Shown here: piece after piece, positions 9,388 to 31,095 of the stretch | Layout: the number at the start of each line of letters is the position of its first letter | Numbering within the stretch: the first letter of the stretch is position 1 | NCBI GenBank assembly: GCA_003599885.1 | Contig: QZKW01000053.1 | Location: 8,057-40,056, forward strand | Direction: 5' to 3' | DNA: 32,000 bases | Origin: Desulfobacteraceae bacterium | GTDB taxonomy: Bacteria; Desulfobacterota; Desulfobacteria; Desulfobacterales; Desulfosalsimonadaceae | Translations under genes and position numbers: made by a program | Notes under the pieces: model-generated | Seen by the model: only the letters and a program-made list of their open reading frames with translations | What the model was told of the DNA's origin: nothing | Databases searched by the model: none

Positions 9388-10347
9388 TTATCCCTTGATC
9401 CGGTTAAACACCATGCTCCTGTCCGTCATGAGTTGCCGCCGTCCGTCAACCGCCCATAAAGAGACAGGCGGAACTGGTTCCGTTTCCGTCTTCATGTCCC
9501 GGGCAGAGGCTGCCATCTGACGCGGAGACAGGTGCATGGACAGGGCCATGCCGATGGCCGCCGCCATTTCAGGCGGTATTTCATCCGATGCGGGTGAAGC
9601 TGGCAAGGTGGGGGCCGCAGCCTGGGCAGGTGTATTCACAGGAGGAATGACAGGCTGGATTTCTTTAGGTTTTCGTTCTATCCTCTGGAATATCGCTCCG
9701 GAAAGCATCATGCCCGCCATCAGCACGGATAGAACAATAAAGACTCCGAAGAACCGGATAAACAGGGTGCCCAGCACATATCCCCAGAACGAGTCCATAG
9801 GACCGCCGATGAGCGTTATCCGGCCGTTTGCCGCCCCGTCCGAATCAAACTGCCCGCCGTCTTTTATCCGGACCACAAATTGCTGAACTTTATCTCCCAA
9901 AGGGATGTTTTCCGCCTGTGAATCCATCCAGGGTGTCGGCAGTTGTTCGTTGAAAATCCAGAAATAGGTGGAGGAAGTGAAAAACGCCGAGGTAATCGTC
10001 AGGGTCGCTTCCCCCCCTGGGGCCACTCCGCCGATTTCAAGGAGGAAGAGGTCGGAACGGAAATCCTTGTTGTTGATTTGGGGACTCATGGCCTTGTTGA
10101 TATCAAACGCATTCACTGCGGCCAGAGTGCCGCCGCCGGTCACTTCAAATGCGAGCGTGACGCTGGTGCTTTTGGCTCTGGGGATGAGTTTCGCGGTGGT
10201 GATTCCGTCTTCCACGGTAAATTCGGGCTTTGGTTTTTCAATATCTTCTTCCATATAGGCCATGGATACGGCCGGCGTCAGAAAAAGAAAGAGTAAGGCG
10301 ACGGTCAGGCATTTTTTGATAAAAAACAGTGATAATTTATTATTCAT
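9388..10347 (-). CDS. OadG-family (decarboxylase gamma/delta anchor) protein with a long N-terminal exported domain
   Basis: Residues ~185-225 (GYVLGTLFIRFFGVFIVLSVLMAGMMLSGAIFQRIE), a Pro/Ala linker and IPPEMAAAIGMALSMHL match the OadG/MmdD-type anchor. Residues 1-30 are a signal peptide. Residues 31-183 are an extra domain ending in IKDGGQFDSDGAANGRITLIGGP. Confidence 0.6.
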   Translation of the reverse strand: MNNKLSLFFIKKCLTVALLFLFLTPAVSMAYMEEDIEKPKPEFTVEDGITTAKLIPRAKSTSVTLAFEVTGGGTLAAVNAFDINKAMSPQINNKDFRSDLFLLEIGGVAPGGEATLTITSAFFTSSTYFWIFNEQLPTPWMDSQAENIPLGDKVQQFVVRIKDGGQFDSDGAANGRITLIGGPMDSFWGYVLGTLFIRFFGVFIVLSVLMAGMMLSGAIFQRIERKPKEIQPVIPPVNTPAQAAAPTLPASPASDEIPPEMAAAIGMALSMHLSPRQMAASARDMKTETEPVPPVSLWAVDGRRQLMTDRSMVFNRIKG

Positions 10348-10356
10348 TTCGCCCTC

Positions 10357-11505
10357 CTATTGAAACATGGCGATAAACATGCCGGCTGCGGCTGCGGAAC
10401 CGATTACGCCGGCCAGATTGGGCCCCATCGCATGCATGAGCAGCCAGTTGTCCGGATCAGCTTTAAGCCCTTCGGAATGGGAAACCCGTGCGCACATCGG
10501 CACCGCAGAAACCCCGGCTGATCCGATCAGCGGGTTCATCTTTTCTTTTAAAAACAAATTCATGATGTGAACCGTGAGGATCCCCCCGAATGTGCAGATA
10601 ACAAAATCCCCGAGTCCGAACGCGAAAATCAGCAGCGGCTTCCAGTGCAGGAAGGTTTCCGCCTGCATGGTCGCGCCCACGGATAGCCCCAGAAAGATGG
10701 TGACGATATTCATCAGCGCGTTTTGGGCCGTGTCCGTCAACCGTTTGACGACAAAGCTTTCCCGCATCAGGTTGCCGAACATGAACATGCCCATCAGCGG
10801 AGCCACCGCAGGGATCAGAAGGATAATGAGAAAACAGGCGACCAGCGGGAACAGCAGTTTCTCCCTGGCGGACACTTCCCGCAGCTGTCTCATACGGATG
10901 CGTCTTTGTTTATGTGTGGTCATCCACCGCATGATGGGGGGCTGAATCAGGGGCACCATGGCCATGTAGGAGTAGGCGGCCAGGGCGTTTGCTCCCAGCA
11001 GATGGGGGGCCAGCTTGGCGGTGAGGTAAATGGTGGTGGGGCCGTCCGCGCCGCCGATAATTCCCACGGATGCCGCTTCTTTTAAGGTGAACCCGAAGAA
11101 AAGGGTTCCAACATAGGTGATAAATACGCCCAGTTGGGCACCTGCCCCGATAATCAAAACTTTCGGGTTGGCGATGAGCGGTCCGAAATCCGTCATGGCC
11201 CCGAGCCCCAGAAAAATCACACAGGGGATGATTTCCCATTCAACGCCGTATTTGTAAAATGCCCGGATCAGTTCCGGGTTGCCATGCTCGGTATATCCCA
11301 TCAGCGGGGCCAGAGGGAAATTAACGATAAAAATCCCGAATCCGATGGGCAGCAGCAGGAGTGGCTCAAATTCTTTGGCAATGGCCAGATAAAGGAATAA
11401 CAGCCCGATGCACAGCATTAAGCCCTGGCCGCCGGTCAGGTTGGGAATCCCTGTCTGCGTAATCAGGATGTTTTTAATCAGTTCCAGTACATGTTCGAAA
11501 GACAT
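10357..11505 (-). CDS. sodium ion-translocating decarboxylase subunit beta (OadB/MmdB/GcdB family)
   Basis: 382-aa polytopic membrane protein with strong family resemblance throughout ([61 protein letters not shown]). It sits between the carboxyltransferase and anchor/biotin-carrier genes. Confidence 0.9.
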
Positions 11506-11523
11506 AAGCTAAAATCTCCTAAT

Positions 11524-13077
11524 TTAAAGCGGAATATTTCCGTGTTTTTTTGGCGGATTGGTATCCCGCTTGGTCTTGAGCATTTTTAAGGCCTGAATAA
11601 TCTGGGGCCGGGTGTCCGCCGGATCGATCACGTCGTCAATGTAGCCGAATTCCGCTGCTTTATAAGGATTGGCGAATTTGTCCCGGTAGTCATCCACCAG
11701 GCGCTGTTTTTCTGCTGCGGCGTCGGTTGCGGATTTGATTTCTTTGCGGAAAATGATATTGACGGCCCCGTCCGCGCCCATGACCGCGATTTCAGCCGTG
11801 GGGTAGGCGATGTTGATATCACCGCGAATGTGCTTGGAACTCATGACGCAGTAAGCGCCGCCGTAGGCTTTTCGGGTGATGAGGGTGAGGCGCGGCACTG
11901 TGGCCTCGCAGAATGCATAGATGAGTTTCGCGCCGTGCTTGATGATGCCGCCGTGCTCCTGATTGATGCCGGGCAGGAAGCCGGGAACATCTTCATAAAT
12001 GACGAGGGGGATGTTGAATGCGTCGCAGAACCGCACAAAGCGCGCGCCTTTCATGGAGGCATTGGCGTCCAGGCATCCGGCCATAACGCTTGGCTGGTTG
12101 GCGATAATGCCCACCGAAGCGCCGTCGAACCGGGCAAATCCCACGACAATATTTTTGGCGAAATGCTCATGGGCTTCAAAGAAATATCCGTCATCCACGT
12201 TGGAGCGGATGATGTCCCTTATATCATAGGGTTTGTTGGGATCTGCCGGAACCACGTCCCGGAGTTTCAGATCACGGCGGCCGGGATCATCGGTGCAGGG
12301 GGTTCGCGGCGCATCTTCCATGTTGTTTTGAGGAAGGAAACTCATCAGTTCGCGGATTTTTAAGATACAGGCCGCATCATCCGGAGAAGCGAAGTGGGCC
12401 ACGCCGCTGATTTCATTATGGGCCATGGCGCCGCCCAGGTCTTCCTTGGTCACCACTTCACGGGTCACTGCTTTAATGACCTCCGGGCCGGTGATGAACA
12501 TTGAGCTGGTTTGCTCCACCATGAAAATCCAGTCGGTCAATGCCGGGGAATACACGGATCCGCCCGCGCAGGGCCCCATAATGGCCGTAATCTGGGGAAT
12601 TACGCCGGATGCCATGACGTTTCTAAGAAAGATGTCTGCGTATCCGGCAAGACTCATGACCCCTTCCTGAATCCGGGCGCCGCCCGAATCGCACAGTCCC
12701 ACCAGAGGCGCGCCCATTCGCTGGGCCATTTCCATGACTTTGCAGATTTTTTCAGCATGGGCAAGCGATAGAGAGCCGCCAAAAACGGTGAAATCCTGAG
12801 AAAAAACAAAAGTCTGCCGTCCGTTCACCAGGCCGTATCCCGTCACCACACTGTCGCCGAGGATTTTCTGGTCCGCCATGCCGAAATCCGTGCATCGGTG
12901 GGCTTTAAAGCGGTCAAGTTCCACAAAGGTGCCCGGGTCCATCAGCTTGGCGATGCGTTCGCGGGCGCTTAACTTTCCGGATTCATGCTGTTTTTGAATC
13001 CGGTCCGCGCCGCCGCCCTGAAGCGCTTCCTGGCTTTTTTGTTCCAGTTTTTTCAATAAGTCCTGGGATGTCGTCAT
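11524..13077 (-). CDS. acyl-CoA carboxyltransferase, methylmalonyl-CoA decarboxylase alpha-subunit type (PccB/MmdA family)
   Basis: 517 aa with hallmark segments [60 protein letters not shown] and [21 protein letters not shown] upstream. Substrate assignment is an inference from size and motifs. Confidence 0.88.
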
Positions 13078-17221: not shown

Positions 17222-19342
17222 ATGATGACGTCCGAAAAAAAGATGGGTTTAGGGCTTGCCAGGGGTTTCCAGATCGTTCTGGCGGTCGTTTTGGCCGGGG
17301 GCATTTTTTTCAGTAATCCCATGGAGGCTGAAGCGGCTGATTTTCTAATCGGCACCGGCATATATGACATCACCGGCCCTGCGGCGGAACTGGGCATGAT
17401 GGGTTATTCCATGCCTGACCAGAAAACCCGGGGCATCAGTATGCGGATTCGGGCGCGGGCTTTTGTGGTCGCGGACCCGGTAAGCAACCGGCGGGTAGCG
17501 CTGGTGATTGCAGACACCGGGATCATTCCTCAGGGGGTCAAGCAGCGGGTGACGGCACTCTTGGCCGCACGGTTCGGCAGTCTGTATACGGATAAAAATG
17601 TGCTGGTCAGCGCAAGCCACACGCACAGTGCGCCGGGCGCCTATTCCCATTACGCCATGTATGATCTGGCAATGCTGGGGTATGATAAAACCAATTTCAA
17701 CTGCGTGGCGGACGGCATTTTTCAATCCATTGTGCGGGCCCACGGGAACCTCACACCTGGAAATATTCTGATCAAGAGCGGCGAACTCAACAACTGCGGA
17801 TGGAACCGTTCTCCCATCGCCTATACCAATAACCCGGCCAGCGAAACCAGCCAATATACGTCCAATACCGACAAAACCATGACCCTGATGAAATTCGTGA
17901 CCGCAACCGGTCAGGAAATCGGGGCCTTCAACTGGTTTGCCGTTCATCCCACCAGCATGGGCAACACCAACAAGCTCATTACCGGGGACAATAAAGGGTA
18001 TGCCGCCTATCTGTTTGAAAAAACAATGGGAACGAATTATATGGCTGCCAATACTTTTGTGGCCGCCTTTGCCGAGAGCAATGCGGGGGATGTGTCGCCC
18101 AATATTTTCTGGGGATACCCCAATGGGGTGGATGACGCCGCTCATATGAAACTTCTGGGCGAGCGTCAGTATATGAAGGCAATGGAACTGTTCAACACCG
18201 CATCCGCGAGGTTGTCCGGCGGGGTGGATTTCCGTCATCAGTATGTGGATTTTTCAAATGAATCCATCGACAGCGCGTTTATGCCTCAGGGTGAAGGCAG
18301 CGGCCACACCTGTGGGGCAGGCATCGGCGTGTCTATGCTGGCGGGAAGCACCGAAGACGGCAAAGGCATTGATATCGGGGAAGGCATCACCTATCCCTAT
18401 GATATTTCCATCCTGGGAAGCGTGTTTCCCTGGGAATTTACTATCATGCCCGAAGAGCAGGCCTGCCACGGGGAAAAGCCCATTATCCTGCCCATGGGAA
18501 GCATCCGGCCCCAGGGTATTCCCCTGACTCCGGAAGTTCTGCCGGTTCAGATCCTCAAAATCGGCAATCTGGCCATCATCGGTCAGCCTACGGAAATAAC
18601 CACCATGGCCGGACGCAGGCTTCAGGAAACGGTATTGAACGCATTGGGAGGGGCAGTGGATTACGTGGTGATCGCGGGGCTTTCCAATGCCTATGCCGGA
18701 TATACAACGACCCGGGAAGAATACGCAATGCAGCATTATGAAGGCGCTTCCACCCATTTCGGGCCTTATTCCCTCAATGCCTATCAGCAGCGGTTTGCGG
18801 GCATTGCATCGGACATGGCTGCCGGCAGGGCATCGGCTGCCGGCCCCGTCCCCAGAGATATCAGCAATAATCAAATTCTGAATGTGCCCGGAGTGGTGTT
18901 TGACGACAAACCCCTGGGAACGGATTTCGGAAGCGTTGAGACAAACGCCAATGCTTCCTACAACCGGGGGGCGACGGTCCGCGTGGTATTCTGGGGCGCG
19001 CATCCCCGAAACAATCTGCGGATACAGGGCACGTTTTTAACCGTGGAAAAAGTCAATACGGTTGAAGTCTGCCGCAATGAGAAAGTCGGGTGCGACACTG
19101 TGACGGTTTGTGAAAACAGGGTCACCGGATATACCGCGGTGGCAAGGGACTGGGACCCTGAAACGGTTTATCAATGGGAACGAAGCGGCATCGCCAATTC
19201 CAAGGTCACAATTTCCTGGACCATTCCGGCAAACACCCCGCCCGGACAATACCGGATCCGGCATTTCGGCAACTGGAAGTCCGGATGGACCGGCGCCATT
19301 ACGGCGTATGAAGGCGTATCCAGAGTGTTTACTGTAAACTGA
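17222..19342 (+). CDS. neutral/alkaline non-lysosomal ceramidase family protein, secreted
   Basis: 706 aa. GGGGGAGGGG RBS and signal peptide (LAVVLAGGIFFSNPMEAEA). N-terminal family signature IGTGIYDITGPAAELGMMGY...RARAFVV, Zn-site-like SASHTHSAPG, and a C-terminal beta-domain (RIRHFGNWKSGW). Confidence 0.85.
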   Translation: MMTSEKKMGLGLARGFQIVLAVVLAGGIFFSNPMEAEAADFLIGTGIYDITGPAAELGMMGYSMPDQKTRGISMRIRARAFVVADPVSNRRVALVIADTGIIPQGVKQRVTALLAARFGSLYTDKNVLVSASHTHSAPGAYSHYAMYDLAMLGYDKTNFNCVADGIFQSIVRAHGNLTPGNILIKSGELNNCGWNRSPIAYTNNPASETSQYTSNTDKTMTLMKFVTATGQEIGAFNWFAVHPTSMGNTNKLITGDNKGYAAYLFEKTMGTNYMAANTFVAAFAESNAGDVSPNIFWGYPNGVDDAAHMKLLGERQYMKAMELFNTASARLSGGVDFRHQYVDFSNESIDSAFMPQGEGSGHTCGAGIGVSMLAGSTEDGKGIDIGEGITYPYDISILGSVFPWEFTIMPEEQACHGEKPIILPMGSIRPQGIPLTPEVLPVQILKIGNLAIIGQPTEITTMAGRRLQETVLNALGGAVDYVVIAGLSNAYAGYTTTREEYAMQHYEGASTHFGPYSLNAYQQRFAGIASDMAAGRASAAGPVPRDISNNQILNVPGVVFDDKPLGTDFGSVETNANASYNRGATVRVVFWGAHPRNNLRIQGTFLTVEKVNTVEVCRNEKVGCDTVTVCENRVTGYTAVARDWDPETVYQWERSGIANSKVTISWTIPANTPPGQYRIRHFGNWKSGWTGAITAYEGVSRVFTVN

Positions 19343-19349
19343 CGGATTC

Positions 19350-20807
19350 ATGCTGTATCCGCTGCTCTCGCCATGGATCAAATTCCCGGCGCTCGGAATC
19401 TTACTGAACGGGATTTATTTCGGGCTGATTCTGGCGGGAATGACGGTGGCAGCGGTTCTTTTTTACAAACAAATGGCCCGGACCGGGGTTGATCCAAACC
19501 GGCTCCGGGCCTTTGTTGTTCTGTCCGGCGTCATGGCGTTTCCCCTGGGCGTGATCGGTTCCCAGGCCGCCAACATGTTCTATTTCCCGCCGGAACAGTG
19601 GAGTTTCGTTTTTTTTTCAGAGCAATTCTTTTCCGGTCCCCACCAGACGTTTCATGCTTCCCTGATTCTGCCCCTTGCATTTCTTCTCGTCATGGCGGCG
19701 GTCTTCCGGCTGAACCTTTCGCATGTGGCGGATACGGTGTTTCTTTATCTTCCGCTGGGCCATGCCGTTGGCAGGACCGGGTGCTTTCTGGTGGGTTGCT
19801 GCTGGGGAAATTTTGTCACATTGACCTGCATTGGAAGGGAATTCTCATTCCATAATCCGGTTCCCCTGTATGAAGTGCTGCTGAATTTATTTTTGTTCTT
19901 TTTTTTACGATTCCATTACCGGCGAATCTACGTGACACGGCAATTGGAGGGGCAGGGCGGCAGGGTGACTGCCTTGTATTTGGTGGGGTACGGCGCTATC
20001 CGCATGCTGCTTGAAACCATCCGCCCGGAGCAGGTGGTGGGCTTTGGCATGACTCTGGCCCAGTGGGGTATGATGGTTTTTATGCTCACAGGACTGGTGA
20101 TGCAGGCCCTGATTTTCTGTCACCGGCATGCCCGAAAAACCGAATCAATGAATAGGTCTCTGCATCCGGCTGTTGTCCGGCTGGCGGGTTTTCTGCTGAG
20201 TCTGGTGCTGGTTGCCGGAGCCGCAGCCTTTCTGCTTAACAGGAAACTGATTCCCTGGCCGTTTCACGGTGCGGACACAGTTGCCGGAACCTGGGGGAGG
20301 ATTCCCGTTTACCTGCCGTTGACTGTTTTTTCGCTGGGCTCGATTTTCTGGATCAGCGACACGACCCGGCCGGTTTGGAATCACTTCCGGCGGGGCCGGT
20401 TTTCCCCATCCTTTCTGGCAGGGCTTGCTGTCAGTGCAGGGTATAGCCTCTATCTCTACCTGTCGTGCAGTTTCGCGTTAAAGGGGATGGGTTTTGTCTT
20501 TCCGGCCATGGCGCTTGGCCTGCTGAATGCCGTGACCGAAGAACTGCTCTTCCGGCTGGTTCTGTTTCAGCTCCTTTTTCGTCTGATCGGATCAATGAAA
20601 TGGTCCAACCTGGTTCAGGCAGTGATTTACGGCTTTCCCCACCTGTTTATCGGCGGGCCGGCATTTTTTGGGTATGCTGCTTTTTACGGTCTGGTTCTTG
20701 GATGGATCACCCGGACAAACAGGAGCATCCTGCCGGCCATAATCTGTCATTTTATTGCCGATATCGGCGCAGTGGGCCTTCCGCTGCTGGTCAATCCCTT
20801 ACGATAA
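19350..20807 (+). CDS. fusion protein: divergent Lgt-like (prolipoprotein diacylglyceryl transferase family) domain + CPBP/Abi intramembrane glutamic protease domain
   Basis: Residues ~1-258 carry Lgt-family blocks: FHAS, GRTGCFLVGCCWG (19770-19808), HNPVPLYEVLLN, LVGYGAIRMLLETIR. Residues ~355-485 carry the CPBP motifs TEELLFR (about 20535-20555), YGFPHLF and ICHFIADIG. The start is 8 nt after the ceramidase stop. Confidence 0.7.
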   Translation: MLYPLLSPWIKFPALGILLNGIYFGLILAGMTVAAVLFYKQMARTGVDPNRLRAFVVLSGVMAFPLGVIGSQAANMFYFPPEQWSFVFFSEQFFSGPHQTFHASLILPLAFLLVMAAVFRLNLSHVADTVFLYLPLGHAVGRTGCFLVGCCWGNFVTLTCIGREFSFHNPVPLYEVLLNLFLFFFLRFHYRRIYVTRQLEGQGGRVTALYLVGYGAIRMLLETIRPEQVVGFGMTLAQWGMMVFMLTGLVMQALIFCHRHARKTESMNRSLHPAVVRLAGFLLSLVLVAGAAAFLLNRKLIPWPFHGADTVAGTWGRIPVYLPLTVFSLGSIFWISDTTRPVWNHFRRGRFSPSFLAGLAVSAGYSLYLYLSCSFALKGMGFVFPAMALGLLNAVTEELLFRLVLFQLLFRLIGSMKWSNLVQAVIYGFPHLFIGGPAFFGYAAFYGLVLGWITRTNRSILPAIICHFIADIGAVGLPLLVNPLR

Positions 20808-21215
20808 ATATTTATTTTTAACCTGGTCGATTTCATTTTTCACGTTTGTAGCCAGTTTTTCGACCAGATTGATAGCGGCTTTGGCAACCGCCATGGCCTG
20901 GGCATCATGGAACTTTTGATAGAGGGATTCAATTTTCTGAATGGCTTCGGTGACCCGGCTCTCATCCAGCTCGGAAAAGTCAATAGGTCCGTTCTGCATG
21001 AAATCGGATGCGTCAAATTCATAAGGAATCCGTTCTGCGGCCTTATTTTTCATATCCACATGGGTGGGCATTTCGAATTCGCCGGAGATGATATTGTTAA
21101 ACCGCAGGTTGCAGATCTCCTTGGCGCAGTCTTTGGCGATGTTCCAGTATTTTTGAAGATTGGCATTTTCTGCAAAATAATTCATGACGCGCACTTCAAG
21201 ATCTTGATTCTTCAT
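20799..21215 (-). CDS. hypothetical protein (138 aa, soluble, helical C-terminus)
   Basis: ORF with an ATGA start/stop overlap to the upstream DUF1285-like gene (21212-21215). No family recognised. Its 3' end overlaps the convergent Lgt-CPBP gene by 9 nt. Confidence 0.5.
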   Translation of the reverse strand: MKNQDLEVRVMNYFAENANLQKYWNIAKDCAKEICNLRFNNIISGEFEMPTHVDMKNKAAERIPYEFDASDFMQNGPIDFSELDESRVTEAIQKIESLYQKFHDAQAMAVAKAAINLVEKLATNVKNEIDQVKNKYLS

Positions 21216-21745
21216 TTTGTCTCCCTTTTTTCTGGAATTGTGAACATTTTGTCGTTGTACTCAAGAAACAACAATCCATCCTTCTCTATAATAAAGGACG
21301 ACAGCTTTAGCATCGCCCGTTCGGAAAATTTAATGGGCTCATTATTTTCAAGGACATAGAGATTGTCCTCTTTGGTATAGAGGCTGTTTGGATCTAACGG
21401 AAACTGTTTTCCGGTGTTCAGGACCAGAGAAATGTTTTCATCCGGCAGAATATCAAAAACAAACAGCGCCGTGTCTTCATAGCAAAAATAGACCTTTTCC
21501 AGCAAGTCATCTCTGACCTGAGAGACAAAATATCCTTTGTCGTCTTTTGAGATGGCGGCGTGGAAATAATCGATGATTTTTTTGTTGCGGAATTTTCCGC
21601 CTTCATTGCACCAGAACCCGGCCTTGTCCAGCCAGAATACGGCTTCTTCTTTTGGAATGATAATTTCCCGGAGTTTATTTGTCATTATGGCAACTGGGTA
21701 AATCCACGTGGATGGCAGGTTGTTTTTTTTCTTGCAGTTTGTCAT
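21212..21745 (-). CDS. DUF1285-like protein
   Basis: The segment FWLDKAGFWCNEGGKFRNKKIIDYFHAAISKDDKGYFV...VYFCYEDTALFVFDI resembles the DUF1285 pattern (DG-W-hxG-pI...LF...L..d..G.Y.L...V.VeD.pf) from memory. An alternative start is Met21 (21685). Confidence 0.45.
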   Translation of the reverse strand: MTNCKKKNNLPSTWIYPVAIMTNKLREIIIPKEEAVFWLDKAGFWCNEGGKFRNKKIIDYFHAAISKDDKGYFVSQVRDDLLEKVYFCYEDTALFVFDILPDENISLVLNTGKQFPLDPNSLYTKEDNLYVLENNEPIKFSERAMLKLSSFIIEKDGLLFLEYNDKMFTIPEKRETK

Positions 21746-21823
21746 GAAATGGTGAGAGTTTCAAGGCATAATCCACTATCATTTGTTTGTCCCTGAAATC
21801 CTCCTTGAAAAGGAACAAAATTA

Positions 21824-22267
21824 ATGAAGACAATCGCTTATGGAACAGTTTTTTCTGTAATGGCCGGATTGCTGCTGCTCGTCAGCGCCTGCAGCAGTTC
21901 AAAAGTCGGGATGCAAAACAACCGCCTCCTGCCGTGCCCGGACTCGCCCAATTGTGTGTCATCATTTGAGACAGATTCCGCTCATTATGTTGAACCACTG
22001 CGTTATGAGGGCTCCAAAGCAGATGCGCGCCAAAAACTCCTGTCCATCCTGAATACAACAAAACGGGTAAAAGTGGTCACATCGGAAGAAACGTATATCC
22101 ATGCGGAATTCACTTCCCTGATCTTCCGGTTTGTGGATGATGTGGAATTTTATCTGGATGAAAAAGAACCGGTTATTCATGTCCGTTCTGCGTCACGGGT
22201 CGGGTATTCAGACCTGGGGGCCAACCGGAAGCGCGTGGAAGAAATCCGGCGGCAATTCATTCAATAA
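21824..22267 (+). CDS. DUF1499 domain lipoprotein
   Basis: Lipobox LLLLVSAC followed by the LLPCPDSPNCVSS motif characteristic of DUF1499. 147 aa. Confidence 0.8.
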   Translation: MKTIAYGTVFSVMAGLLLLVSACSSSKVGMQNNRLLPCPDSPNCVSSFETDSAHYVEPLRYEGSKADARQKLLSILNTTKRVKVVTSEETYIHAEFTSLIFRFVDDVEFYLDEKEPVIHVRSASRVGYSDLGANRKRVEEIRRQFIQ

Positions 22268-22620: not shown

Positions 22621-22665
22621 ATGATGAGACATTTCCCATACAACAAAATTTGCAGGAGTCCGGCC

Positions 22666-25221
22666 ATGAGTGCTTATCATCGGATGCGTTATCAGTGGAT
22701 GCTTCACCAGTGCTGCCTGATTTTTTTAAGTCTGATTCTTTCCGGATGCGGGAATCTTTTTGATCTGGCCTTACGAAAAACCGCTGATCCGGATGAGGGC
22801 TCGGTATCGCTTGCGGGAATCCATGACACGGTGACCATCCGCCGGGATGACCTGGGCATTCCGGTAATTGAGGCGAAGAATCTTCATGATCTGGTGTTTG
22901 CGGCCGGTTATGCCATGGCCTCCGACCGTCTGGCGCAAATGGTGACTTTTTCCCTGCTCGGGCAGGGCCGCTTGTCTGAAATGGCGGGGAAAGTCGCCCT
23001 GGATATGGACGTCTATGTCCGCACCATGGGGGTGGCCGAAGCTGCAAGGGCTGAATTCACCGGCATGAACCCGGAAATCAGGGATGCACTGAGCGCATTT
23101 TCCGATGGCATTAATGCCTACATCACCACCCACCGCGACCAACTGCCGCTGGATTTCAAAATTTCCGGATACACGCCGGAACCCTGGGAACCGGTTAATT
23201 CCATGTACATTGCCCATGTGTTTAACCTGGGGCTGTCTTTTAATCTTCATGAAGAGATCGCTTTTTTAAATATGGCGGGTGCTGTAGGAGCGTCCAAAGC
23301 CGCCTGGCTGATGCCGGTGTATCCGGATGAAACGCTGCCGTTTGAAAAAGCCGCAGCCCTTGAAGGAATTAATTTAAAGGGGATGATGCGGACGGCTGAA
23401 AATATCAGCCAGGTGCATCGGCAGCTCAAATACGTCATCGCGCCCCCGGGAACGGCCGCATCGAATAACTGGGGCATTGCTCCGCAAAATACCCTGAAAC
23501 AGGCGAGCATTATTGCCAATGATACGCATCTTCCGCTGGAGCAGCCATCCATGTGGATGCTGATGCACCTGAAGTGTCCGGATATGGATGCCGCGGGGGT
23601 TGCCATTGCCGGAGTTCCCGGCATTGTGGCGGGGTATAACGGGCATATCGCCTGGGGCGAAACCATGGTCATGGGAGACAATCAGGACGTATTTATCGAG
23701 CAGCTGAAAGAGATCAGCGGAAAGCCCCATTATTTCTATAAAGGGAAGTGGCTGCCGGTGGTTGAACGGCAGGAGACGTTTAAAATCAAAGGGAAGGGTG
23801 ATCTGATCCAGACCATTGATTCCACAAATCATGGACCGCTTCTGAATCCTGCCATTAAAAATTCGCCGAAAAACATTATGCAGCCGCCGGCCATTGAGGT
23901 GGAGTCCGTTTACGGTCTTGCGGTGCAGTCTGTGATTTCCCATCCCGGCCAGTCCTTTAATGGCGTGTATGAACTGATGCGGGCAACGGATATGGAAAGC
24001 GCACGGGATGCAATCCGCAAGGTTCGGTCCATGTCCTTGAATTTTATTTATGGAAACGCGGACCAGATCGCCTGGCAGGTCAGCGGAAGATATCCCGTCC
24101 GCCAGTCCGGAAGGGGCCATCTGCCGTCTCCCGGCTGGACTGGAGAATATGACTGGAAGGGGTATGCGGAAGTGGATGATCATCCGTATGTCAAGGACCC
24201 GCCGGATGGGTATCTGTATACGGCCAACAACCGGACCATCACGCCGGACCATGATCCGGTCCTTTCCTCTTCCTGGTGTACACCGGAAAGATCCGAACGC
24301 ATTGGGGAGATGCTGGAAAAAACCAATCGGCACACCTGGCAGGAATCCGTTGACATGCACCGGGACCGGACGGATTTGCTGGTGAAAAAATTTCAGTCTG
24401 TTTTGTTTGCCCCGGCATTTTCAGCCGATGTCCGGAAGCGGATCCAGTCATGGAAAGACGGGGAAAAAATTCAAAATGCCAATGAAGCCATGGAAATCCT
24501 GAAGTCCTTTGACGGCAATATGCTGCCGGAATCCAAAGGGGCGGCTGTGATGGGAATTTTTCAGCATGTGTTTATTCATCAGGTGTTTTCAGATGAATTG
24601 GGCCCTCCGGGCAGTCCGGCCTGGCAAAGCTTTATCATGGCGATTCAGGCGGTGTATTCCGCAGACCAGGACCATCTGCTCGGGCGTCTGGACAGTCCTT
24701 TCTGGGATAATATCAACACGCCGGAAAAAGAAACAAAGGCCGATATAATTGCGGAATCGCTGGCAGATGCCATTGCCTATGCTGAAGCGCATCTGGGGCG
24801 TGATCGTGAGCAGTGGCAGTGGGGACGGCTGTTGACGTATGAATGGCGAACCCAGACCACACAAATGAAGAATTTCCTGCCTGCCATGCAGCAATTCGGG
24901 GTAAGGGTGATGGGCAAATATACGGACCGGGGGCCCTATGCTGCCGGCGGCAGCTATAATACCTTAAATGTGGCCGGAAACCTCAAAGGCGAAAATTTCA
25001 ACGTATGGCTGGTGCCGGCCATGAGGATGATTGTGGATTTCGGCCTGGATGAACCCCTGTTCCTGACCAACAGCAGTGGTCAGTCCGGCAATCCGGTAAG
25101 CTCCCATTATGATGATGCCATTCCTGTGTGGTTAAAGGGCGACACCCGGTCTATGCCGTTTAAAGAGGGGAATATCAAAGCACAATATACCCATTCGTAT
25201 GTGTTGAAACCGAAATCGTGA
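22666..25221 (+). CDS. penicillin acylase family Ntn-hydrolase lipoprotein (possible acyl-homoserine-lactone / lipopeptide acylase)
   Basis: AGGAG (22654-22658) lies 7 nt before ATG 22666; the track ORF begins at 22621. Lipobox LILSGC has its Cys at 22747-22749. The alpha/beta autoprocessing junction GTAA|SNNWGIAP has the nucleophile Ser codon at 23461-23463. Length is about 850 aa. Confidence 0.85.
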   Translation: MSAYHRMRYQWMLHQCCLIFLSLILSGCGNLFDLALRKTADPDEGSVSLAGIHDTVTIRRDDLGIPVIEAKNLHDLVFAAGYAMASDRLAQMVTFSLLGQGRLSEMAGKVALDMDVYVRTMGVAEAARAEFTGMNPEIRDALSAFSDGINAYITTHRDQLPLDFKISGYTPEPWEPVNSMYIAHVFNLGLSFNLHEEIAFLNMAGAVGASKAAWLMPVYPDETLPFEKAAALEGINLKGMMRTAENISQVHRQLKYVIAPPGTAASNNWGIAPQNTLKQASIIANDTHLPLEQPSMWMLMHLKCPDMDAAGVAIAGVPGIVAGYNGHIAWGETMVMGDNQDVFIEQLKEISGKPHYFYKGKWLPVVERQETFKIKGKGDLIQTIDSTNHGPLLNPAIKNSPKNIMQPPAIEVESVYGLAVQSVISHPGQSFNGVYELMRATDMESARDAIRKVRSMSLNFIYGNADQIAWQVSGRYPVRQSGRGHLPSPGWTGEYDWKGYAEVDDHPYVKDPPDGYLYTANNRTITPDHDPVLSSSWCTPERSERIGEMLEKTNRHTWQESVDMHRDRTDLLVKKFQSVLFAPAFSADVRKRIQSWKDGEKIQNANEAMEILKSFDGNMLPESKGAAVMGIFQHVFIHQVFSDELGPPGSPAWQSFIMAIQAVYSADQDHLLGRLDSPFWDNINTPEKETKADIIAESLADAIAYAEAHLGRDREQWQWGRLLTYEWRTQTTQMKNFLPAMQQFGVRVMGKYTDRGPYAAGGSYNTLNVAGNLKGENFNVWLVPAMRMIVDFGLDEPLFLTNSSGQSGNPVSSHYDDAIPVWLKGDTRSMPFKEGNIKAQYTHSYVLKPKS

Positions 25222-26147: not shown

Positions 26148-26708
26148 TTAATTGATTTCTGTAATTTCTATGTCATCAATCCAGAAGTTCCCGTTGGTCA
26201 GCAGTAAATCCAGAGTAATTTCTTGTGCATCCGGCGGAGCAACCGTTGTCAGCTTCAGGTTTTTCCATCCGTCCTCGCCTTTCATTTCCAGCATCAGGTC
26301 GATGGTGGGCATCGGAGAAGTCCGGGAGGGCTTATAGTTGAGTCTGATGGCCGGGGCGATAAAATTGGGGCTGTATCCTATGGCTTTGGCTTTTACCCAA
26401 ACGCTCAACTGGTATTTTTTCCCCGGGGTGATATCGGTCATTTTTTTCTCCGGATAAAGCAATAAGCTGCCACCGGGAGGATTGATTTTGACCATATATG
26501 AATATTTGCCGCCGTGCTTTTCAACGTCATCAAAGGAAAATCCAGCGGAAGTGCCCCGGTATACTTTGGTCACCCATCCATCCGGAAGCGTGTCTGTTTT
26601 TTTCGTTTCAAATCCCCCGTTGTGTACGATATTCGCTGCACAGAATCCGGGTGAAGCCATCATCAAAAAAACCATTAGAAATGCAATGCCAGCGACAATT
26701 TTTCTCAT
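26148..26708 (-). CDS. secreted single-domain carbohydrate-binding-module-like (CBM4/9-type jelly-roll) protein
   Basis: Signal peptide (IAFLMVFLMMASPGFCAA) followed immediately by NIVHNGGFE...DGW, later KYQLSVWVKA and C-terminal NFWIDDIEI. This is the pattern of CBM_4_9-like domains. No catalytic domain is attached. Confidence 0.6.
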   Translation of the reverse strand: MRKIVAGIAFLMVFLMMASPGFCAANIVHNGGFETKKTDTLPDGWVTKVYRGTSAGFSFDDVEKHGGKYSYMVKINPPGGSLLLYPEKKMTDITPGKKYQLSVWVKAKAIGYSPNFIAPAIRLNYKPSRTSPMPTIDLMLEMKGEDGWKNLKLTTVAPPDAQEITLDLLLTNGNFWIDDIEITEIN

Positions 26709-27042
26709 TGTCCCCCCTTTCGAAATGCCTATGGAGCTGTCGAAGTTGTACTCAGGTTGTATGAATCGGCTATAATTTATACTATGAATAAACGTTTCGC
26801 AAGGGAAAAAAGGATTGATGTGACAGCATATACTGATTCAGAGCCCCTTGCCGACACCAGCGGGCGGAGTATCAATCTTTTTCAGTGCTTCAAAACGTGT
26901 TAATTCGCTGTAAACGTAAAATATTATTGACACCGGAAGCAATCCGGTATTTGATGATTTTATCATAATTATAATTGGTTGGGCATGAATCATCCCTCTG
27001 GCGGGTATTTTATTCATTTTTCGACAAATCAAGGAGATTCCT

Positions 27043-27489
27043 ATGAAGTGTAAGCGAACGCCTGTATTGATCATCCTGTGTCTGCTGTTTATGAGTCTGT
27101 TTTTGGTTGCCTGTGAAAAGGAAAAAAAACAGGGCAAGCTATCGATTGCAGAGCAGACGTTTCATATGAGGCAGGATACAGAAAACACGTTTACCATTGA
27201 CGCAAAGGGTAAAATCAGAAATATTGGTGATGTGGATGTCAAAAACGTAGTTGTCACCGGTTACTGCAGGTCCTGTCCCGGCCTTTGGGGTGTCGGTCAG
27301 TGGCAGACCTCTCCGGATCTCGAAAGAATGCCCCAGCAAAAAGACACCATCAATTATATTGCCGCCGGGGGTGAAGAATCATTCAGCTTCACGGAAGTCG
27401 CAGACTATTTATTGACAGCCGACCGGAAAACACCGGAATTGCCTGAGAAACTGGAAGCCGTCATTGAGTCTTTTGAAACCGTCGAATAA
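27043..27489 (+). CDS. CxxC lipoprotein, paralog 1 of 4 (unknown family)
   Basis: AAGGAG RBS, lipobox LFLVAC and tether EKEKKQGK. Core GKIRNIGDVDVKNVVVTGYCRSC, QQKDTINYIAAGGEESFSF, and C-terminal ESFETVE. Confidence 0.8.
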   Translation: MKCKRTPVLIILCLLFMSLFLVACEKEKKQGKLSIAEQTFHMRQDTENTFTIDAKGKIRNIGDVDVKNVVVTGYCRSCPGLWGVGQWQTSPDLERMPQQKDTINYIAAGGEESFSFTEVADYLLTADRKTPELPEKLEAVIESFETVE

Positions 27490-27615
27490 TAATGTGCTGA
27501 ATAGTTTTTAAATTTCTGATCATTGTGCCGAAACAAAAATCAGCGGAGGACGGATATTTGGATGAGAACAGAAGAATGAAACCGTTTCTTAATTGACAAG
27601 CATGAGAGGTGTGCC

Positions 27616-28062
27616 ATGAAATTTTATATCCGTCTGACTGCGATTATGTTGTCCTTATTGTTTGTTTGCCTGTGTCTGTTTGCCTGTGAAAAGGAAAAAA
27701 AGCAGGGCAAGGTGATTGTTACGGAAAAAGAATTTTGGTTAGATGAGTATGGAAAGGTTACATTGTCATTAAATGTCAAAGGAAAAATTAAAAATGCCGG
27801 CGATGTGGATGTGAAAAATATTGTCGTCACCGGGCAATGCAAAACCTGTGGTGAGGTGTTGATCAGCGGCAGGTGGTTTGTTTCTGATACGGAAAAGCTC
27901 CCTGAGCAAAAAGATATCATCAATTTTTTACCGGCAGGCGCTGAGGAGCAATTTCAGTTTAAAGGCATTGCATATTTTTTTACCAAAGCCGGAGAAACGC
28001 CGTCGGCAAATCCTGAAGGGCTTGAGGTCTTCATAGAGTCATTTGAAGTTGTTGAAAAATAA
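27616..28062 (+). CDS. CxxC lipoprotein, paralog 2 of 4 (unknown family)
   Basis: GAGAGG RBS, lipobox LCLFAC and tether EKEKKQGK. Core GKIKNAGDVDVKNIVVTGQCKTC, EQKDIINFLPAGAEEQFQF, and C-terminal ESFEVVEK. Confidence 0.8.
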   Translation: MKFYIRLTAIMLSLLFVCLCLFACEKEKKQGKVIVTEKEFWLDEYGKVTLSLNVKGKIKNAGDVDVKNIVVTGQCKTCGEVLISGRWFVSDTEKLPEQKDIINFLPAGAEEQFQFKGIAYFFTKAGETPSANPEGLEVFIESFEVVEK

Positions 28063-28084
28063 TGTAATAATAATGAGGTGTGCT

Positions 28085-28552
28085 ATGAAATCGTATATTC
28101 GCCTGACTTCTCCAGCGCTGATTTTATTATTTGTTTGTCTTGCCGTGGTTGCCTGCGAAAAAAAAAAGGAAGGCAAGGTGGAGGTTGTCGCTCAGGAATT
28201 TGTTTTAAGGGCGGATTCCGATCATTCATATGTCATTGACGCCAAAGGCAAAATAAAAAACACCGGCGAAGTGGATGTGAAAAATATTGTCGTGACGTCA
28301 GTCTGCAAGTCTTGCAGTGAAATATTTGCTGTCGGGATATGGTTCATCACAGGGAGTGAAGGGAGTGAAGGATCTCAAAAGAATCCGGAGCAAAAAGATA
28401 CGATCAATTATCTGCCCGCAGGCAAGGAAGCGGAATTCAATTTTCAGGAAGCGGCGTATATGATGGTTCTGCCAAAAGGCTCTCCTCCCACCAGCAACAA
28501 GCCGGATCAGATTGAAGTGGTGGTTGAATCATTTGAAACGGTTGACAAATAA
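28085..28552 (+). CDS. CxxC lipoprotein, paralog 3 of 4 (unknown family)
   Basis: I chose ATG 28085 (GAGG at 28075-28078); the track ORF start at 28043 would overlap paralog 2. Lipobox LAVVAC and tether EKKKEGK. Core GKIKNTGEVDVKNIVVTSVCKSC, EQKDTINYLPAGKEAEFNF, and C-terminal ESFETVDK. Confidence 0.8.
   Translation: MKSYIRLTSPALILLFVCLAVVACEKKKEGKVEVVAQEFVLRADSDHSYVIDAKGKIKNTGEVDVKNIVVTSVCKSCSEIFAVGIWFITGSEGSEGSQKNPEQKDTINYLPAGKEAEFNFQEAAYMMVLPKGSPPTSNKPDQIEVVVESFETVDK
28351..28372 (+). repeat. 9-bp tandem duplication (AGGGAGTGA x2 plus partial AGGA) inside paralog 3
   Basis: Read directly. It encodes GSEGSEGS, an insertion relative to the other three paralogs, in the variable loop after the CxxC motif. 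Confidence 0.7.
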
Positions 28553-28660
28553 GGCCTTTCACAGGCATATTGCAGATTCACGTCAAACACTTTATACTTG
28601 ATCGTATTACGCTTAAATCTTTTCTCAAATGATTTTTTGGATCGAAAGAGGAGTTAGGCT

Positions 28661-29107
28661 ATGGTGAGATATCGTCGGCGATTTACTTTATTTTGTGTGT
28701 TGATGTGTCTGAGTGTTTGTCTTGTCTCCTGCGAAAAGAAAAAGACTGAGGGTAAAGTGGAGGTTTCTGCGCAGGAATTTGTTTTACGGCAGGATAAAGA
28801 AAATTCATATATTATTGACGCAAAAGGCAAAATTAAAAATACCGGCACAGTGGATGTCAAAAATGTGGTTGTGACCGGACAATGCGGCTCTTGCAGTGAA
28901 ATATGGACTATCGGGATATGGACGATATCGGGAACTGAAAAATGGCCGTATCAGAAGGATACCATCAGTTATTTACCCGCAGGCAGTGAAGGGGAGTTTA
29001 GTTTTAAAAGTGTCGCGGATTTTGCAAGCCGTGCGGGTGACCCGGCCCCCAGCATGCCGGATAAGCTTGCAGTCATTATTGAATCGTTTGAGACAGTTGA
29101 AAAATAA
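28661..29107 (+). CDS. CxxC lipoprotein, paralog 4 of 4 (unknown family)
   Basis: AGAGGAG RBS, lipobox VCLVSC and tether EKKKTEGK. Core GKIKNTGTVDVKNVVVTGQCGSC, YQKDTISYLPAGSEGEFSF, and C-terminal ESFETVEK. Confidence 0.8.
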   Translation: MVRYRRRFTLFCVLMCLSVCLVSCEKKKTEGKVEVSAQEFVLRQDKENSYIIDAKGKIKNTGTVDVKNVVVTGQCGSCSEIWTIGIWTISGTEKWPYQKDTISYLPAGSEGEFSFKSVADFASRAGDPAPSMPDKLAVIIESFETVEK

Positions 29108-29117
29108 TCGGTTAAGC

Positions 29118-30368
29118 TCAATCCGTTCGGTTTTCCTTTAACCGGATGACCACCGGGATGCCGATATTTTCCAAGAGATTGGCTTCAGCGCGATGAATTA
29201 ACGCTTCCAGCTCCTTGACCTCATCGGAAAAAATGGCGTCATTGACCGGTATCCAGACTTCGATACATTTTCTGTCAATTTTCCGGACATGGAATGCGGG
29301 GGGGGCCGGGGGGAGCCCTAACAGAGACTGAATGGCTGTCTGCATTTGTTGTATCTGAATTTTTACCCCATCGATATTTAACAGTTCATCGGTGCGTTCT
29401 CCGGCCCATTCGATGCGCCGGAGTTGCCTCCCGCAGGAGCAGGCCGCCCGGATGATTCGCGCCCGGTCGCCGGTTTTAAACCGGATCAGCGGAAACGCCC
29501 GGGTCGTCAGCGTGGTCAGCACCAATTCCCCAAACCGGTCCTCAGCCAGCACATCACCCGAAACCGGGTCCACAATTTCCGGAAGAAAGTGATCCTCATT
29601 GACATGAAGGCCTTCGTGGGCCTCACACTCAAAGGCAATGGCAGGCCCCGGCACTTCACTAAGACCGTAATGGACCCAAACCTTAACGCCTAACCGGTCT
29701 TCCAGTTTCTTTCGCGTATCCGGATCAATGGCTTCCCCCACAAGAATCAAGGTCTTTAACCCCATGGCTGTGGTGTTGATTTCTTCTTTGAGAACGTAAT
29801 CCGCCAGTTGGAGGGCGGAAGCGGGGGTGGTGATGAGAACGGAGGACCGGTAATCCATCAGCACCATCACTTTTTTTTCTATAGACATGGGGGTGTGAGG
29901 AATGACGCTGGCCTCAATGGCCTCAGCGCCGGATTTATAATCCCGGCCCCAGTTGGCGAGTCCTGGGGGTAAGGTGATCTGGAGGATGTCATGGGGGGTT
30001 ATATCCGAAGCCAGCAGCGCCCGGGTCAAAATGTTTTGCCAGACTGACAGGTCCTGGGGCGTGTAGCCGCTGACCGTAGGTTTTTGGGTGGTTCCGGGCG
30101 CGGTATGAATTCTCACGATGTCCCGCAGGGGGACCGCAAACAGGTCGTAGGGATAATTGTCACTGATATGATGGCGTTCCATAAAAGGCAGGCGGGCCAG
30201 ATCGGATAACTGATTGATATCGGATATATCAATGCCCATGTCTTTAAACCGTTTTTTATGGAAAGGCACATTGCGGTATGCCCGGTTTAACGTGCTTTGG
30301 AGCCTTTCCAATTGGAGCTGAATTTTTTCTTCCCTGTTCATGGACAGAAATTCATCTTTAATCATCAT
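29118..30368 (-). CDS. phenylacetate-CoA ligase family (PaaK-like adenylate-forming) protein
   Basis: From ATGATG at 30368/30365: MMIKDEFLSMNREEKIQLQLERLQSTLNRAYRNVPFHKKRF..., then the P-loop-like HTAPGTTQKPTV and later YGLSEV. This is the typical PaaK / coenzyme F390 synthetase-like layout of ~416 aa. The longer track ORF (to 30521) overlaps livF and is rejected. Confidence 0.85.
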   Translation of the reverse strand: MMIKDEFLSMNREEKIQLQLERLQSTLNRAYRNVPFHKKRFKDMGIDISDINQLSDLARLPFMERHHISDNYPYDLFAVPLRDIVRIHTAPGTTQKPTVSGYTPQDLSVWQNILTRALLASDITPHDILQITLPPGLANWGRDYKSGAEAIEASVIPHTPMSIEKKVMVLMDYRSSVLITTPASALQLADYVLKEEINTTAMGLKTLILVGEAIDPDTRKKLEDRLGVKVWVHYGLSEVPGPAIAFECEAHEGLHVNEDHFLPEIVDPVSGDVLAEDRFGELVLTTLTTRAFPLIRFKTGDRARIIRAACSCGRQLRRIEWAGERTDELLNIDGVKIQIQQMQTAIQSLLGLPPAPPAFHVRKIDRKCIEVWIPVNDAIFSDEVKELEALIHRAEANLLENIGIPVVIRLKENRTD

Positions 30369-31095
30369 AAAATTCTCCGTAATCTTTGCCAAGATAAGCG
30401 CGTTTGACTTCCTGGTCTGCGAGAAGCTCTGAGGCCGGACCCTGCAGAACGACGCTGCCGGTTTCAAAAACATAGCCATGATCGGCGATCTGGAGCGCCG
30501 CCTGGGCGTTTTGCTCCACAAGGAGGATGGTGATGCCGTCCTTTCTTAAGGATTCAAGAATCTGGAAAATTTTTTCAACAATCATGGGTGCGAGTCCCAT
30601 GGAAGGTTCATCCAGAAGCAGGAGCCGGGGATGCGACATGAGCGCACGTCCGATGGCAAGCATCTGCTGTTCCCCGCCGGAAAGCGTGCCAGCCGGTTGT
30701 TTGGCTCTTTGCCTTAAAATCGGAAACAGTTCCAGAACTTTTTCCAGGGTCTGGCGCACCAGGGCATGTTCCCGTTTGCGGTACATGGTGTATGCCCCGA
30801 GCTTCAGATTGTCCAGAACGCTCAGGGGCGGGAAGATCAAGCGGCCTTCCGGCACCAGGCTGATGCCTTTTTTGACGACCGCCGTCGGATCGCACCCTTT
30901 TAATGAAGCGCCCTCAAAAGCGATGTCCCCCTCCCAGCCCGGCAACAGTCCGCAGACTGCCTCAAGAAGCGTGCTTTTGCCGGAGCCGTTGGCCCCGATC
31001 AGGGCGATGATCTGGCTTTTTTTAACCGACAGACTCACGCCTTTGACGGCCATGATCCGGCCATAATAGCATTTCAGGTTGGTAATACGCAGCAT
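30358..31095 (-). CDS. livF: branched-chain amino acid (HAAT family) ABC transporter ATP-binding protein, LivF type
   Basis: Walker A GANGSGKST, signature LSGGEQQMLAIGRAL, Walker B LLLLDEPS, and the LivF-typical end AYLG. Confidence 0.85.
   Translation of the reverse strand: MLRITNLKCYYGRIMAVKGVSLSVKKSQIIALIGANGSGKSTLLEAVCGLLPGWEGDIAFEGASLKGCDPTAVVKKGISLVPEGRLIFPPLSVLDNLKLGAYTMYRKREHALVRQTLEKVLELFPILRQRAKQPAGTLSGGEQQMLAIGRALMSHPRLLLLDEPSMGLAPMIVEKIFQILESLRKDGITILLVEQNAQAALQIADHGYVFETGSVVLQGPASELLADQEVKRAYLGKDYGEFYDD

Follow-up and report, generated by a model that had tools for sequence, protein, structure and literature searches.

We have analysed a tandem array of four lipoprotein genes in a stretch of 32,000 nucleotides from a Desulfobacteraceae bacterium (positions 8,057 to 40,056 of contig QZKW01000053.1, assembly GCA_003599885.1; the whole stretch is called the window below, and positions are counted from its first letter). 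The four genes are very probably ancient paralogues in a small family of Sec-exported lipoproteins, in which a mature domain of about 125 amino acids, modelled as a six-strand immunoglobulin (Ig)-like beta-sandwich, follows a tether of about 8 residues. The family, which has not been described before, is real, rare and lineage-restricted and is under constraint, while its function we infer, with low confidence, to be that of a membrane-distal thiol site, redox-active or metal-bridging, for which class-specific loops would set the partner specificity. Among the readings of this site we place first a dithiol/disulfide (or sulfane-sulfur) exchange on an Ig-fold scaffold, to which we assign a probability of about 0.3.

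A preliminary description of the window, made from its letters, had reported four same-strand paralogous genes with a lipobox in each copy, and both the open reading frames (ORFs) and an end-to-end alignment agree with it on the following genes:

27043..27489, + strand: copy 1, 148 amino acids, class B, lipobox LVAC, lipid Cys24 codon at 27112-27114, CRSC at 27265-27276
27616..28062, + strand: copy 2, 148 amino acids, class F, lipobox LFAC, CKTC at 27838-27849
28085..28552, + strand: copy 3, 155 amino acids, class G, lipobox VVAC, CKSC at 28304-28315
28661..29107, + strand: copy 4, 148 amino acids, class G, lipobox LVSC, CGSC at 28883-28894

In the alignment of the four copies 45 columns are invariant and the identity to copy 1 is 47-51%, and the mature domains are 46-64% identical among themselves, copies 3 and 4 being the closest pair (64%). 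A Shine-Dalgarno sequence (AAGGAGA) lies upstream of copy 1, and each copy is preceded by its own GGAG/GAGG ribosome-binding site. The start of copy 3 is an ATG within a longer TTG ORF beginning at 28043, and its product (P0030 in our survey) has a sequence identical to that of the NCBI entry [quoted passage not shown]. A 129.7-kb JGI metagenome contig (Ga0104756_1000049) contains the window with 100% identity. Since the array genes are under purifying selection, as described below, they are judged on sequence grounds to be genuine coding genes.

The signal calls were pattern-based, a lipobox being taken as [LVI][ASTVI][GAS]C after a basic n-region and a hydrophobic h-region. All four copies have the basic n-region and hydrophobic core followed by the lipobox and then C-E-K-(E/K)-K-x-(Q/E)-G-K, and by these sequence features they are candidate substrates of signal peptidase II, with predicted lipidation. 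The Lys/Glu-rich tether of the preliminary description is present in each copy and needs the correction that it comes to only about 8 residues in the array copies; because it is so short, the array domains would lie close to the membrane. Of the 90 full-length copies in the whole family, 83 have a lipobox-like motif, the median length of the signal being 23 residues; in nearly all of the 90, 30-31 residues separate the lipid Cys from the G.I.N.G motif. The signal peptides are of the Sec type and only 2 of the 83 have a twin-Arg-like motif, which rules out an Fe-S or other cofactor exported by Tat as a family property.

The family had been left unnamed, and the libraries that we searched gave it no name. 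For the window lipoproteins, Pfam and NCBIfam gave nothing significant and mostly signal-peptide noise, PADLOC gave no match, and the best PHROGs match, to a family of unknown function, was below significance at an expectation value (E) of 0.019; with no significant PHROGs or PADLOC match, a phage or anti-phage defence protein is rejected. A sequence search of PDB with the 66-member family profile had bL36m as its sole match (E 0.72), which is a chance resemblance of CxxC knuckles. The searches of Pfam, NCBIfam, PHROGs, PADLOC and the PDB sequences thus gave no significant match, and the earlier statement that no characterised system is built alike holds as far as these libraries go.

A word-indexed search of 5.8 billion proteins found 68 relatives with 39-98% identity and lengths of 113-172 amino acids; those with a source name are all labelled "hypothetical", and those with an organism name belong to metagenome-assembled genomes (MAGs) of Desulfobacteraceae or Desulfosalsimonadaceae. 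Because an exhaustive hidden Markov model (HMM) search of 1.84 billion cluster representatives found only 85 proteins at E <= 1e-3, the family is regarded as rare. In GTDB species genomes a scan found 51 loci, every one of them in Desulfobacterales MAGs (Desulfococcaceae, Desulfosalsimonadaceae, Desulfonema and Desulfococcus), and in the sequences searched the lipoprotein branch is found in Desulfobacterales only. The family HMM, run against the ORFs from every locus, showed that the genes stand alone in some places and in others form same-strand tandem arrays of 2-6 copies; at least 8 copies, across 5 loci, were counted in one nearly complete MAG. This survey of copy number, tandem layout and neighbours, which the preliminary description had proposed, gave loci of 1-6 copies with a carbohydrate-binding module (CBM)-like gene as the sole consistent neighbour. 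In the six-gene array of L005, one copy (6168-6566) is split into two ORFs of 62 and 67 amino acids and is probably a pseudogene, so arrays would also lose copies.

The most strictly kept feature of the family is the Cys pair. CxxC is present in 90 of the 90 full-length copies (CRSC in 57, CKSC in 13), and 71 of them have no further Cys; besides the lipid Cys, the pair provides the sole cysteines of each of the four mature array proteins, as had been stated for the CRSC, CKTC, CKSC and CGSC copies, which have 0-1 His and 0-2 Met each. Invariant in the 66-sequence alignment are C24, G56, N60, D65, C78, W87, Q98, S142 and E144, and C75 is nearly so. The family signature is T-G-x-C-[RK]-S-C, ending strand 3, then an invariant Trp nine residues on, and the diagnostic motifs are G.I.N.G..DVKN..VT..C..C, the W, I.YL.AG.E.F.F and ESFE. 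The view of the CxxC as functionally central gains from its presence in all 90 copies and its retention in distant relatives, which argue for it at the sequence level. Attachment of haem c is ruled out, as no His follows any CxxC.

An AlphaFold2 model of copy 4, built on the 66-sequence alignment, has a mean predicted local distance difference test score (pLDDT) of 90.5 and a predicted template modelling score of 0.74. Besides the signal helix and a 3-residue turn the model is all-beta, with six long strands (33-46, 49-60, 66-75, 99-105, 110-122 and 136-145), and we are confident from the model that the mature protein of about 125 amino acids is a single six-strand Ig-like beta-sandwich. Thioredoxin-fold CxxC oxidoreductases (DsbA, TlpA, ResA, CcmG) are rejected because the model is all-beta and there is no Pfam match. 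Membership in LEA-2/WHy is rejected as well, since LEA-2 has seven strands and a helix after strand 5, and the model has six strands and no helix there.

Weak relatives of the fold were found through one hairpin. The family profile matches giant repeat proteins of Pfam DUF7507/DUF11 at profile positions of about 31-85, via the G.V.N.G..D..NV.VT hairpin, and hhalign against these repeats gives 92% probability over 29 columns only (the beta2-turn-beta3 hairpin); two distant relatives have DUF11 scores of E 0.01-0.05. For DUF2393 (PF09624), whose Pfam gathering threshold is 26 bits, the best window score is 11.9 bits (E 0.23, copy 2) and scores were also seen for six distant relatives, 18.7-19.7 bits (E about 1e-3) being reached in this distant group, so that all window and distant-relative scores are sub-threshold. 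DUF2393, DUF11 (PF01345) and DUF7507 (PF24346) are likewise all-beta Ig-like with this strand-turn-strand, and DUF2393 proteins are also membrane-anchored just ahead of the domain; they differ in having no CxxC...W element, no I.YL.AG.E.F.F block and no ESFE C-terminus, and the likeness covers about 29 columns only, with scores below the Pfam gathering cut-offs. Since these families are also uncharacterised, membership in them would explain nothing. Of the preliminary impression of an Ig-like/CARDB domain, the fold class and the hairpin motif are borne out and formal membership in a named family is not; on the model, the family is a CxxC-Trp tip on a known fold class, namely a membrane-anchored Ig-like sandwich with a DUF11/DUF2393-type hairpin.

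The domain extends beyond the lipoproteins. Weaker matches of the exhaustive search are proteins of 129-493 amino acids that carry the domain C-terminally, preceded by a signal peptide, lipobox, transmembrane segment, coiled coil or tetratricopeptide (TPR) repeats, and hhalign of this distant branch against the lipoproteins gives 99.7% over 115 columns, which means whole-domain homology. The invariant residues of the distant branch are G, N, C, C, W, I and F; because the Cys pair and the Trp nine residues on are kept here too, they form the deepest signature of the domain. One distant relative (P0120) has C-x-C in place of CxxC. The domain, or CxxC-less DUF2393-like copies of it, is found in P0118, P0141 and P0145, combined in some with TPR repeats, and P0141 and P0145 have several tandem domain copies without the Cys pair, a distribution which suggests that CxxC was gained or lost inside a broader domain lineage. 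The gene contexts of three distant relatives have nothing in common and no conserved partner, and a cluster look-up gave no informative names.

Differences among the copies had been placed in two segments, and to the question "loops DIVERSIFYING?" the column entropy answers with peaks of 2.13 at residues 79-97 (loop A) and 2.31 at residues 123-135, against 0.57-1.61 in the strands and CxxC and 1.48 overall; the variation is thus not evenly spread. Copy 3 has a 6-residue SEGSEG insertion in loop A. The further step to a conserved scaffold presenting diversified loops did not survive, as loop-focused variation is the default for any beta-sandwich. For the 45 closest pairs (78-96% identity) we calculated the ratio of nonsynonymous to synonymous change (omega) by the Nei-Gojobori method; its values are 0.03-0.25 overall and, when the loops alone are taken, 0.00-0.30, and loop A itself contains the invariant G85 and W87 and the near-invariant K94. 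Average-linkage clustering resolved paralogue classes that recur in order across genomes (CABE, CFABE, CFAB, JABE, DABE and CAB, with C-F-A-B-E as the recurring order), and in many genomes the same locus contains just one copy, of class A. The window array is B-F-G-G, with a lineage-specific duplication of G. DNA repeats within the array are 61-77% identical, which is coding similarity only, and at the DNA level nothing points to recent gene conversion or to a shuffling of cassettes within it. Because omega is low and the class order is conserved, the array is regarded as an old set of specialised paralogues, with loops that are class-specific and constrained.

The features next to the array are as follows:

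26148..26708, - strand: CBM-like secreted stand-alone protein, 186 amino acids, jelly roll, divergent from the array; found in 21 loci
26709..27042, no strand: divergent AT-rich intergenic region of 334 bp between the CBM-like gene and copy 1

The CBM-like gene is the only neighbour consistently tied to the main locus of the family. Its protein belongs to a family just as small as that of the lipoproteins, with 47 homologues, most of them with a precomputed match to PF02018 (CBM_4_9); the window protein scores 23.7 bits (cut-off 25.9) and the L037 orthologue 26.9 bits. The AlphaFold2 model (pLDDT 89.6) matches structures of CBM22, CBM16, CBM4 and CBM61 with E of about 1e-7 and probability 1.0, and a CBM4/9/16/22-type fold can be predicted confidently, with glycan binding as a putative function. 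Judged by its few named members and the shared loci, the range of this family seems similarly restricted, and the protein is the only plausible partner of the lipoproteins. The intergenic region is presumed to be a shared promoter region for the CBM-like gene and copy 1; promoter and terminator scans were uninformative, with no strong promoter or terminator called in it.

In the layout of the main locus (21-24 loci), a penicillin-amidase family gene (7 loci) lies upstream, then a Y_phosphatase3 gene (19 loci), then the divergent CBM-like gene and the array of 1-6 copies, and a PaaK-like ligase and a Liv-type ATP-binding cassette (ABC) transporter lie downstream in convergent orientation (about 24 loci). 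A functional link to the ligase and transporter is rejected, since they are on the opposite strand, convergent and absent from other family loci, and their co-occurrence is most simply conserved synteny. In the window, the PaaK-like ORF (29118-30521, - strand) has 467 amino acids from a TTG and shares about 160 nucleotides with the LivF-like ABC ATPase gene upstream of it; gene callers gave a 416-amino-acid version on the identical contig. Other family loci are without the CBM-like gene, and further singletons are in unrelated neighbourhoods. The class-D singletons (L041, L042, L049, L050, L052 and L053), which form the most divergent lipoprotein class, always adjoin an AMP-binding (acyl-CoA ligase-like) gene of about 590-673 amino acids and a protein of 226-326 amino acids with no Pfam match, and L044 and L050 overlap on one contig of one MAG, with family copies about 16 kb apart. 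No Dsb/CcdA-type, thioredoxin-fold, cytochrome-maturation, metal-transport or oxidase genes were linked in the window or the related loci examined.

Several other genes of the window were noted. The 866-amino-acid penicillin-amidase family (Ntn-hydrolase) protein at 22621-25221, syntenic upstream of the array in the 7 loci, has a lipobox-like signal (LILSGC) and may be an acyl-amide or N-acyl homoserine lactone acylase-like enzyme. A neutral/alkaline ceramidase homologue (PF04734, E 7e-163, with its C-terminal domain) at 17222-20807 is directly followed by a 485-amino-acid fusion of prolipoprotein diacylglyceryl transferase (Lgt) and Rce1-like CAAX protease domains; this pairing appears unusual for Desulfobacterales and hints at sphingolipid or lipoprotein remodelling. 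A Na+-translocating decarboxylase-type cluster at 8859-13077 comprises a carboxyltransferase, OAD-beta, a biotin carrier and a 319-amino-acid protein in which one segment resembles a gamma chain.

The array had been described by eye as more AT-rich than its flanks, and the guanine-plus-cytosine content (GC) is indeed 42% at 27-29 kb against 53% in the flanks, with third-position values (GC3) of 0.42-0.52 in the array genes and 0.60-0.64 in neighbouring genes. This trait is common to the whole family, whose genes are below their flanks in 45 of 48 loci by a mean of 5.5 points, and these 45 low loci together with locus synteny across genomes rule out a recent horizontal transfer as its source. 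Since the patches 7001-8000 (40.6%) and 21001-22000 (42.6%) are also low in GC, the array is not the sole AT-rich island of the window; they cover a cytidylate-kinase-like gene and small ORFs without Pfam match beside a DUF1499 gene. An Rfam search of the window had zero matches, which rules out a riboswitch or other RNA element. The stops of copy 4 and the convergent PaaK-like ORF are 10 nucleotides apart, so there is no room for a terminator hairpin between them. Antisense ORFs of about 100 amino acids lie within the array (27624-27923 and 26838-27137, both - strand) and similar ones are found in 26 loci; since the sense strand is conserved, their apparent conservation is an artefact of ORF listing.

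Three characterised systems come closest to the lipoproteins. DsbD's N-terminal domain (nDsbD) is an Ig-fold thiol oxidoreductase in which a cap loop lies over Cys103 and Cys109 at one end of the Ig fold (PMC7347389); it would share with the family a periplasmic Ig-like fold, a reactive Cys pair at the sandwich end and shielding or flanking loops that govern partner recognition (PMC7347389), whereas it has Cx5C across a hairpin instead of CxxC and is a domain of a large membrane protein feeding electrons, no such partner being linked here. Membership in it is rejected, with no Pfam match, a position outside the best 50 Foldseek PDB matches and no DsbD/CcdA nearby. Cox11 has a membrane-tethered Ig-like domain with two Cys per monomer and a Cu2S4 cluster across the dimer (PMC6696091), and the likeness of Cox11/CtaG lies in this Ig-like beta domain facing the periplasm and in the two closely spaced Cys (PMC6696091). 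It differs in its Cys-X-Cys, transmembrane-helix anchor, single copy and linkage to haem-copper oxidase genes; there are no oxidase genes in the window or related loci, and membership in PF04442 is rejected, as there is no Pfam match at E <= 10 and CxxC and a lipid anchor are present here. The Cpx-activating NlpE is also a small lipoprotein, with a conserved CXXC in its N-terminal beta domain, which forms a disulfide in the crystal, is proposed to bind metal when reduced and is dispensable for signalling (PMC6538781), but it has a lipocalin-like barrel and two domains, is single-copy and showed no sequence similarity by Pfam.

As judged from the alternating strand directions of the model, the CxxC and the loops 79-97 and 123-135 would stand at the membrane-distal tip, with the N.G..D turn and the C-terminal ESFE strand beside the membrane. 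An invariant reactive pair beside specificity loops would be the layout of a docking or active site. In the thiol-exchange reading, the Cys pair would be displayed as a reactive dithiol/disulfide site on the Ig-fold scaffold and, like the Ig-fold nDsbD, would pass on thiol-disulfide bonds or sulfane sulfur in exchange with a partner; the flanking loops, distinct between classes and constant within a class, would choose the partner of each class. The array would then be a fixed set of specialised paralogues and not a diversity generator, and its linkage to a secreted CBM-like protein suggests that it acts at the cell envelope or in the glycan layer of the latter. Extracytoplasmic single CxxC motifs of known function are mostly redox-active, and because of this and the nDsbD precedent we favour thiol exchange. 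The oxidised CXXC of the lipoprotein NlpE (PMC6538781) is a further point in its favour. Several points weigh against it: no thiol-redox partner (DsbD/CcdA, thioredoxin-fold, cytochrome-maturation) is near any locus examined; nDsbD, Cox11 and NlpE are outside the best 50 Foldseek matches and have no Pfam match; a stable disulfide is doubtful in the periplasm of a sulfidogenic anaerobe, which is reducing; and the distal-tip placement of the CxxC is a prediction from strand topology.

Nearly as likely as thiol exchange is an intersubunit metal half-site, in which two protomers of the same or different class would each contribute a CxxC to one thiophilic metal (Zn2+, Cu+, Cd/Hg), giving homo- or heterodimers at the membrane surface by the logic of Cox11 or the Rad50 zinc hook. 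With exactly two Cys, 0-1 His and 0-2 Met, one subunit has no complete metal site, which fits this possibility and is no proof of it. The modelled position of the CxxC, at a strand end before a turn, is knuckle-like, several paralogue classes are co-encoded, and Sec export means that a metal would be picked up in the periplasm. The membrane-anchored Ig-like domain of Cox11 with its Cys-X-Cys site bridging a dimer (PMC6696091) is a precedent, and the C-x-C of P0120 resembles it. Pfam and the best 50 Foldseek matches, however, show no similarity to Cox11, and the contexts examined have no linked metal transporter, no oxidase and no metalloenzyme target. Heterodimers cannot be the core function, as the main locus of many genomes has only one copy, and free thiophilic metal is scarce in sulfidic habitats.

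A smaller chance is left for a passive envelope component, in which the CxxC would be a structural staple packed by the invariant Trp, and spacer- or adhesin-like Ig lipoproteins would work with the CBM-like protein on a glycan or exopolymer layer. This accords with the divergent CBM4/9/22-like neighbour in 21 loci and its equally narrow distribution, with the richness of the window in envelope and lipid genes (a GT4 glycosyltransferase, the Lgt-Rce1 fusion, the ceramidase and the amidase with a lipobox-like signal), and with the DUF11/DUF7507-like hairpin class, which is typical of surface repeat proteins. The trio of Cys, Cys and Trp is also reminiscent of an Ig-domain core. The dispensability of the conserved CXXC of NlpE for signalling (PMC6538781) is a caution in the same direction. 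A disulfide between residues i and i+3 would, however, make a poor staple and would not be stable where the periplasm is reducing and sulfidic, the Cys pair is kept more strictly than any core residue, even in distant relatives without the CBM neighbour, and singletons are found in unrelated contexts without the CBM gene.

Binding of lipid or another hydrophobic ligand, as proposed for LEA-2-type membrane-tethered beta-sandwiches, with the CxxC as incidental, is improbable. The luminal (LEA-2) domain of TMEM106B (8b7d) is a weak Foldseek match at rank 41 (E 0.054), the short tether would hold the domain at the membrane, and lipid-amide hydrolases and acyl-CoA enzymes are among the neighbours. 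Against this, DUF2393 was a negative control in the LEA-2 paper and was kept out of the LEA-2 cluster, there is no Pfam LEA_2 match, and the invariant Cys pair would be given no role. The least credible explanation is the diversifying display of the preliminary description, that is, variable surface or receptor proteins under diversifying selection, to which the two loops of highest entropy and the tandem, multi-copy genes would lend themselves and which is largely refuted, as far as sequences tell, by a loop omega never near 1 in the 45 close pairs, by the classes and class order kept between genomes, by array repeats too dissimilar for recent conversion or shuffling and by the invariant residues within loop A.

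As it stands, the family is one of many lineage-restricted, uncharacterised lipoprotein families. It offers a compact domain family with diagnostic motifs, fit for domain databases and for simple testing with recombinant proteins. The periplasmic thiol and metal chemistry of strictly anaerobic, sulfidogenic bacteria is poorly understood. If the CxxC-Trp tip works as a thiol site, then bacterial envelopes, from which nDsbD and Cox11 are known, would gain in it only a second kind of Ig-fold module for thiol exchange or metal bridging, and it would be the first such module reported for strictly anaerobic, sulfidogenic bacteria. A wider proposal, which we think rather unlikely, is that these are a new class of Ig-fold thiol modules in the envelope of anaerobic cells, a set of paralogues whose distal-tip CxxC-Trp would relay electrons or sulfane sulfur to class-specific periplasmic partners, or would zip protomers together via shared metal-thiolate centres, as the zinc hook or Cox11 does. 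If that is true, sulfate reducers would have at their membrane surface a partner-specific relay for redox or metal, or else a lattice, that does not depend on the thioredoxin fold.

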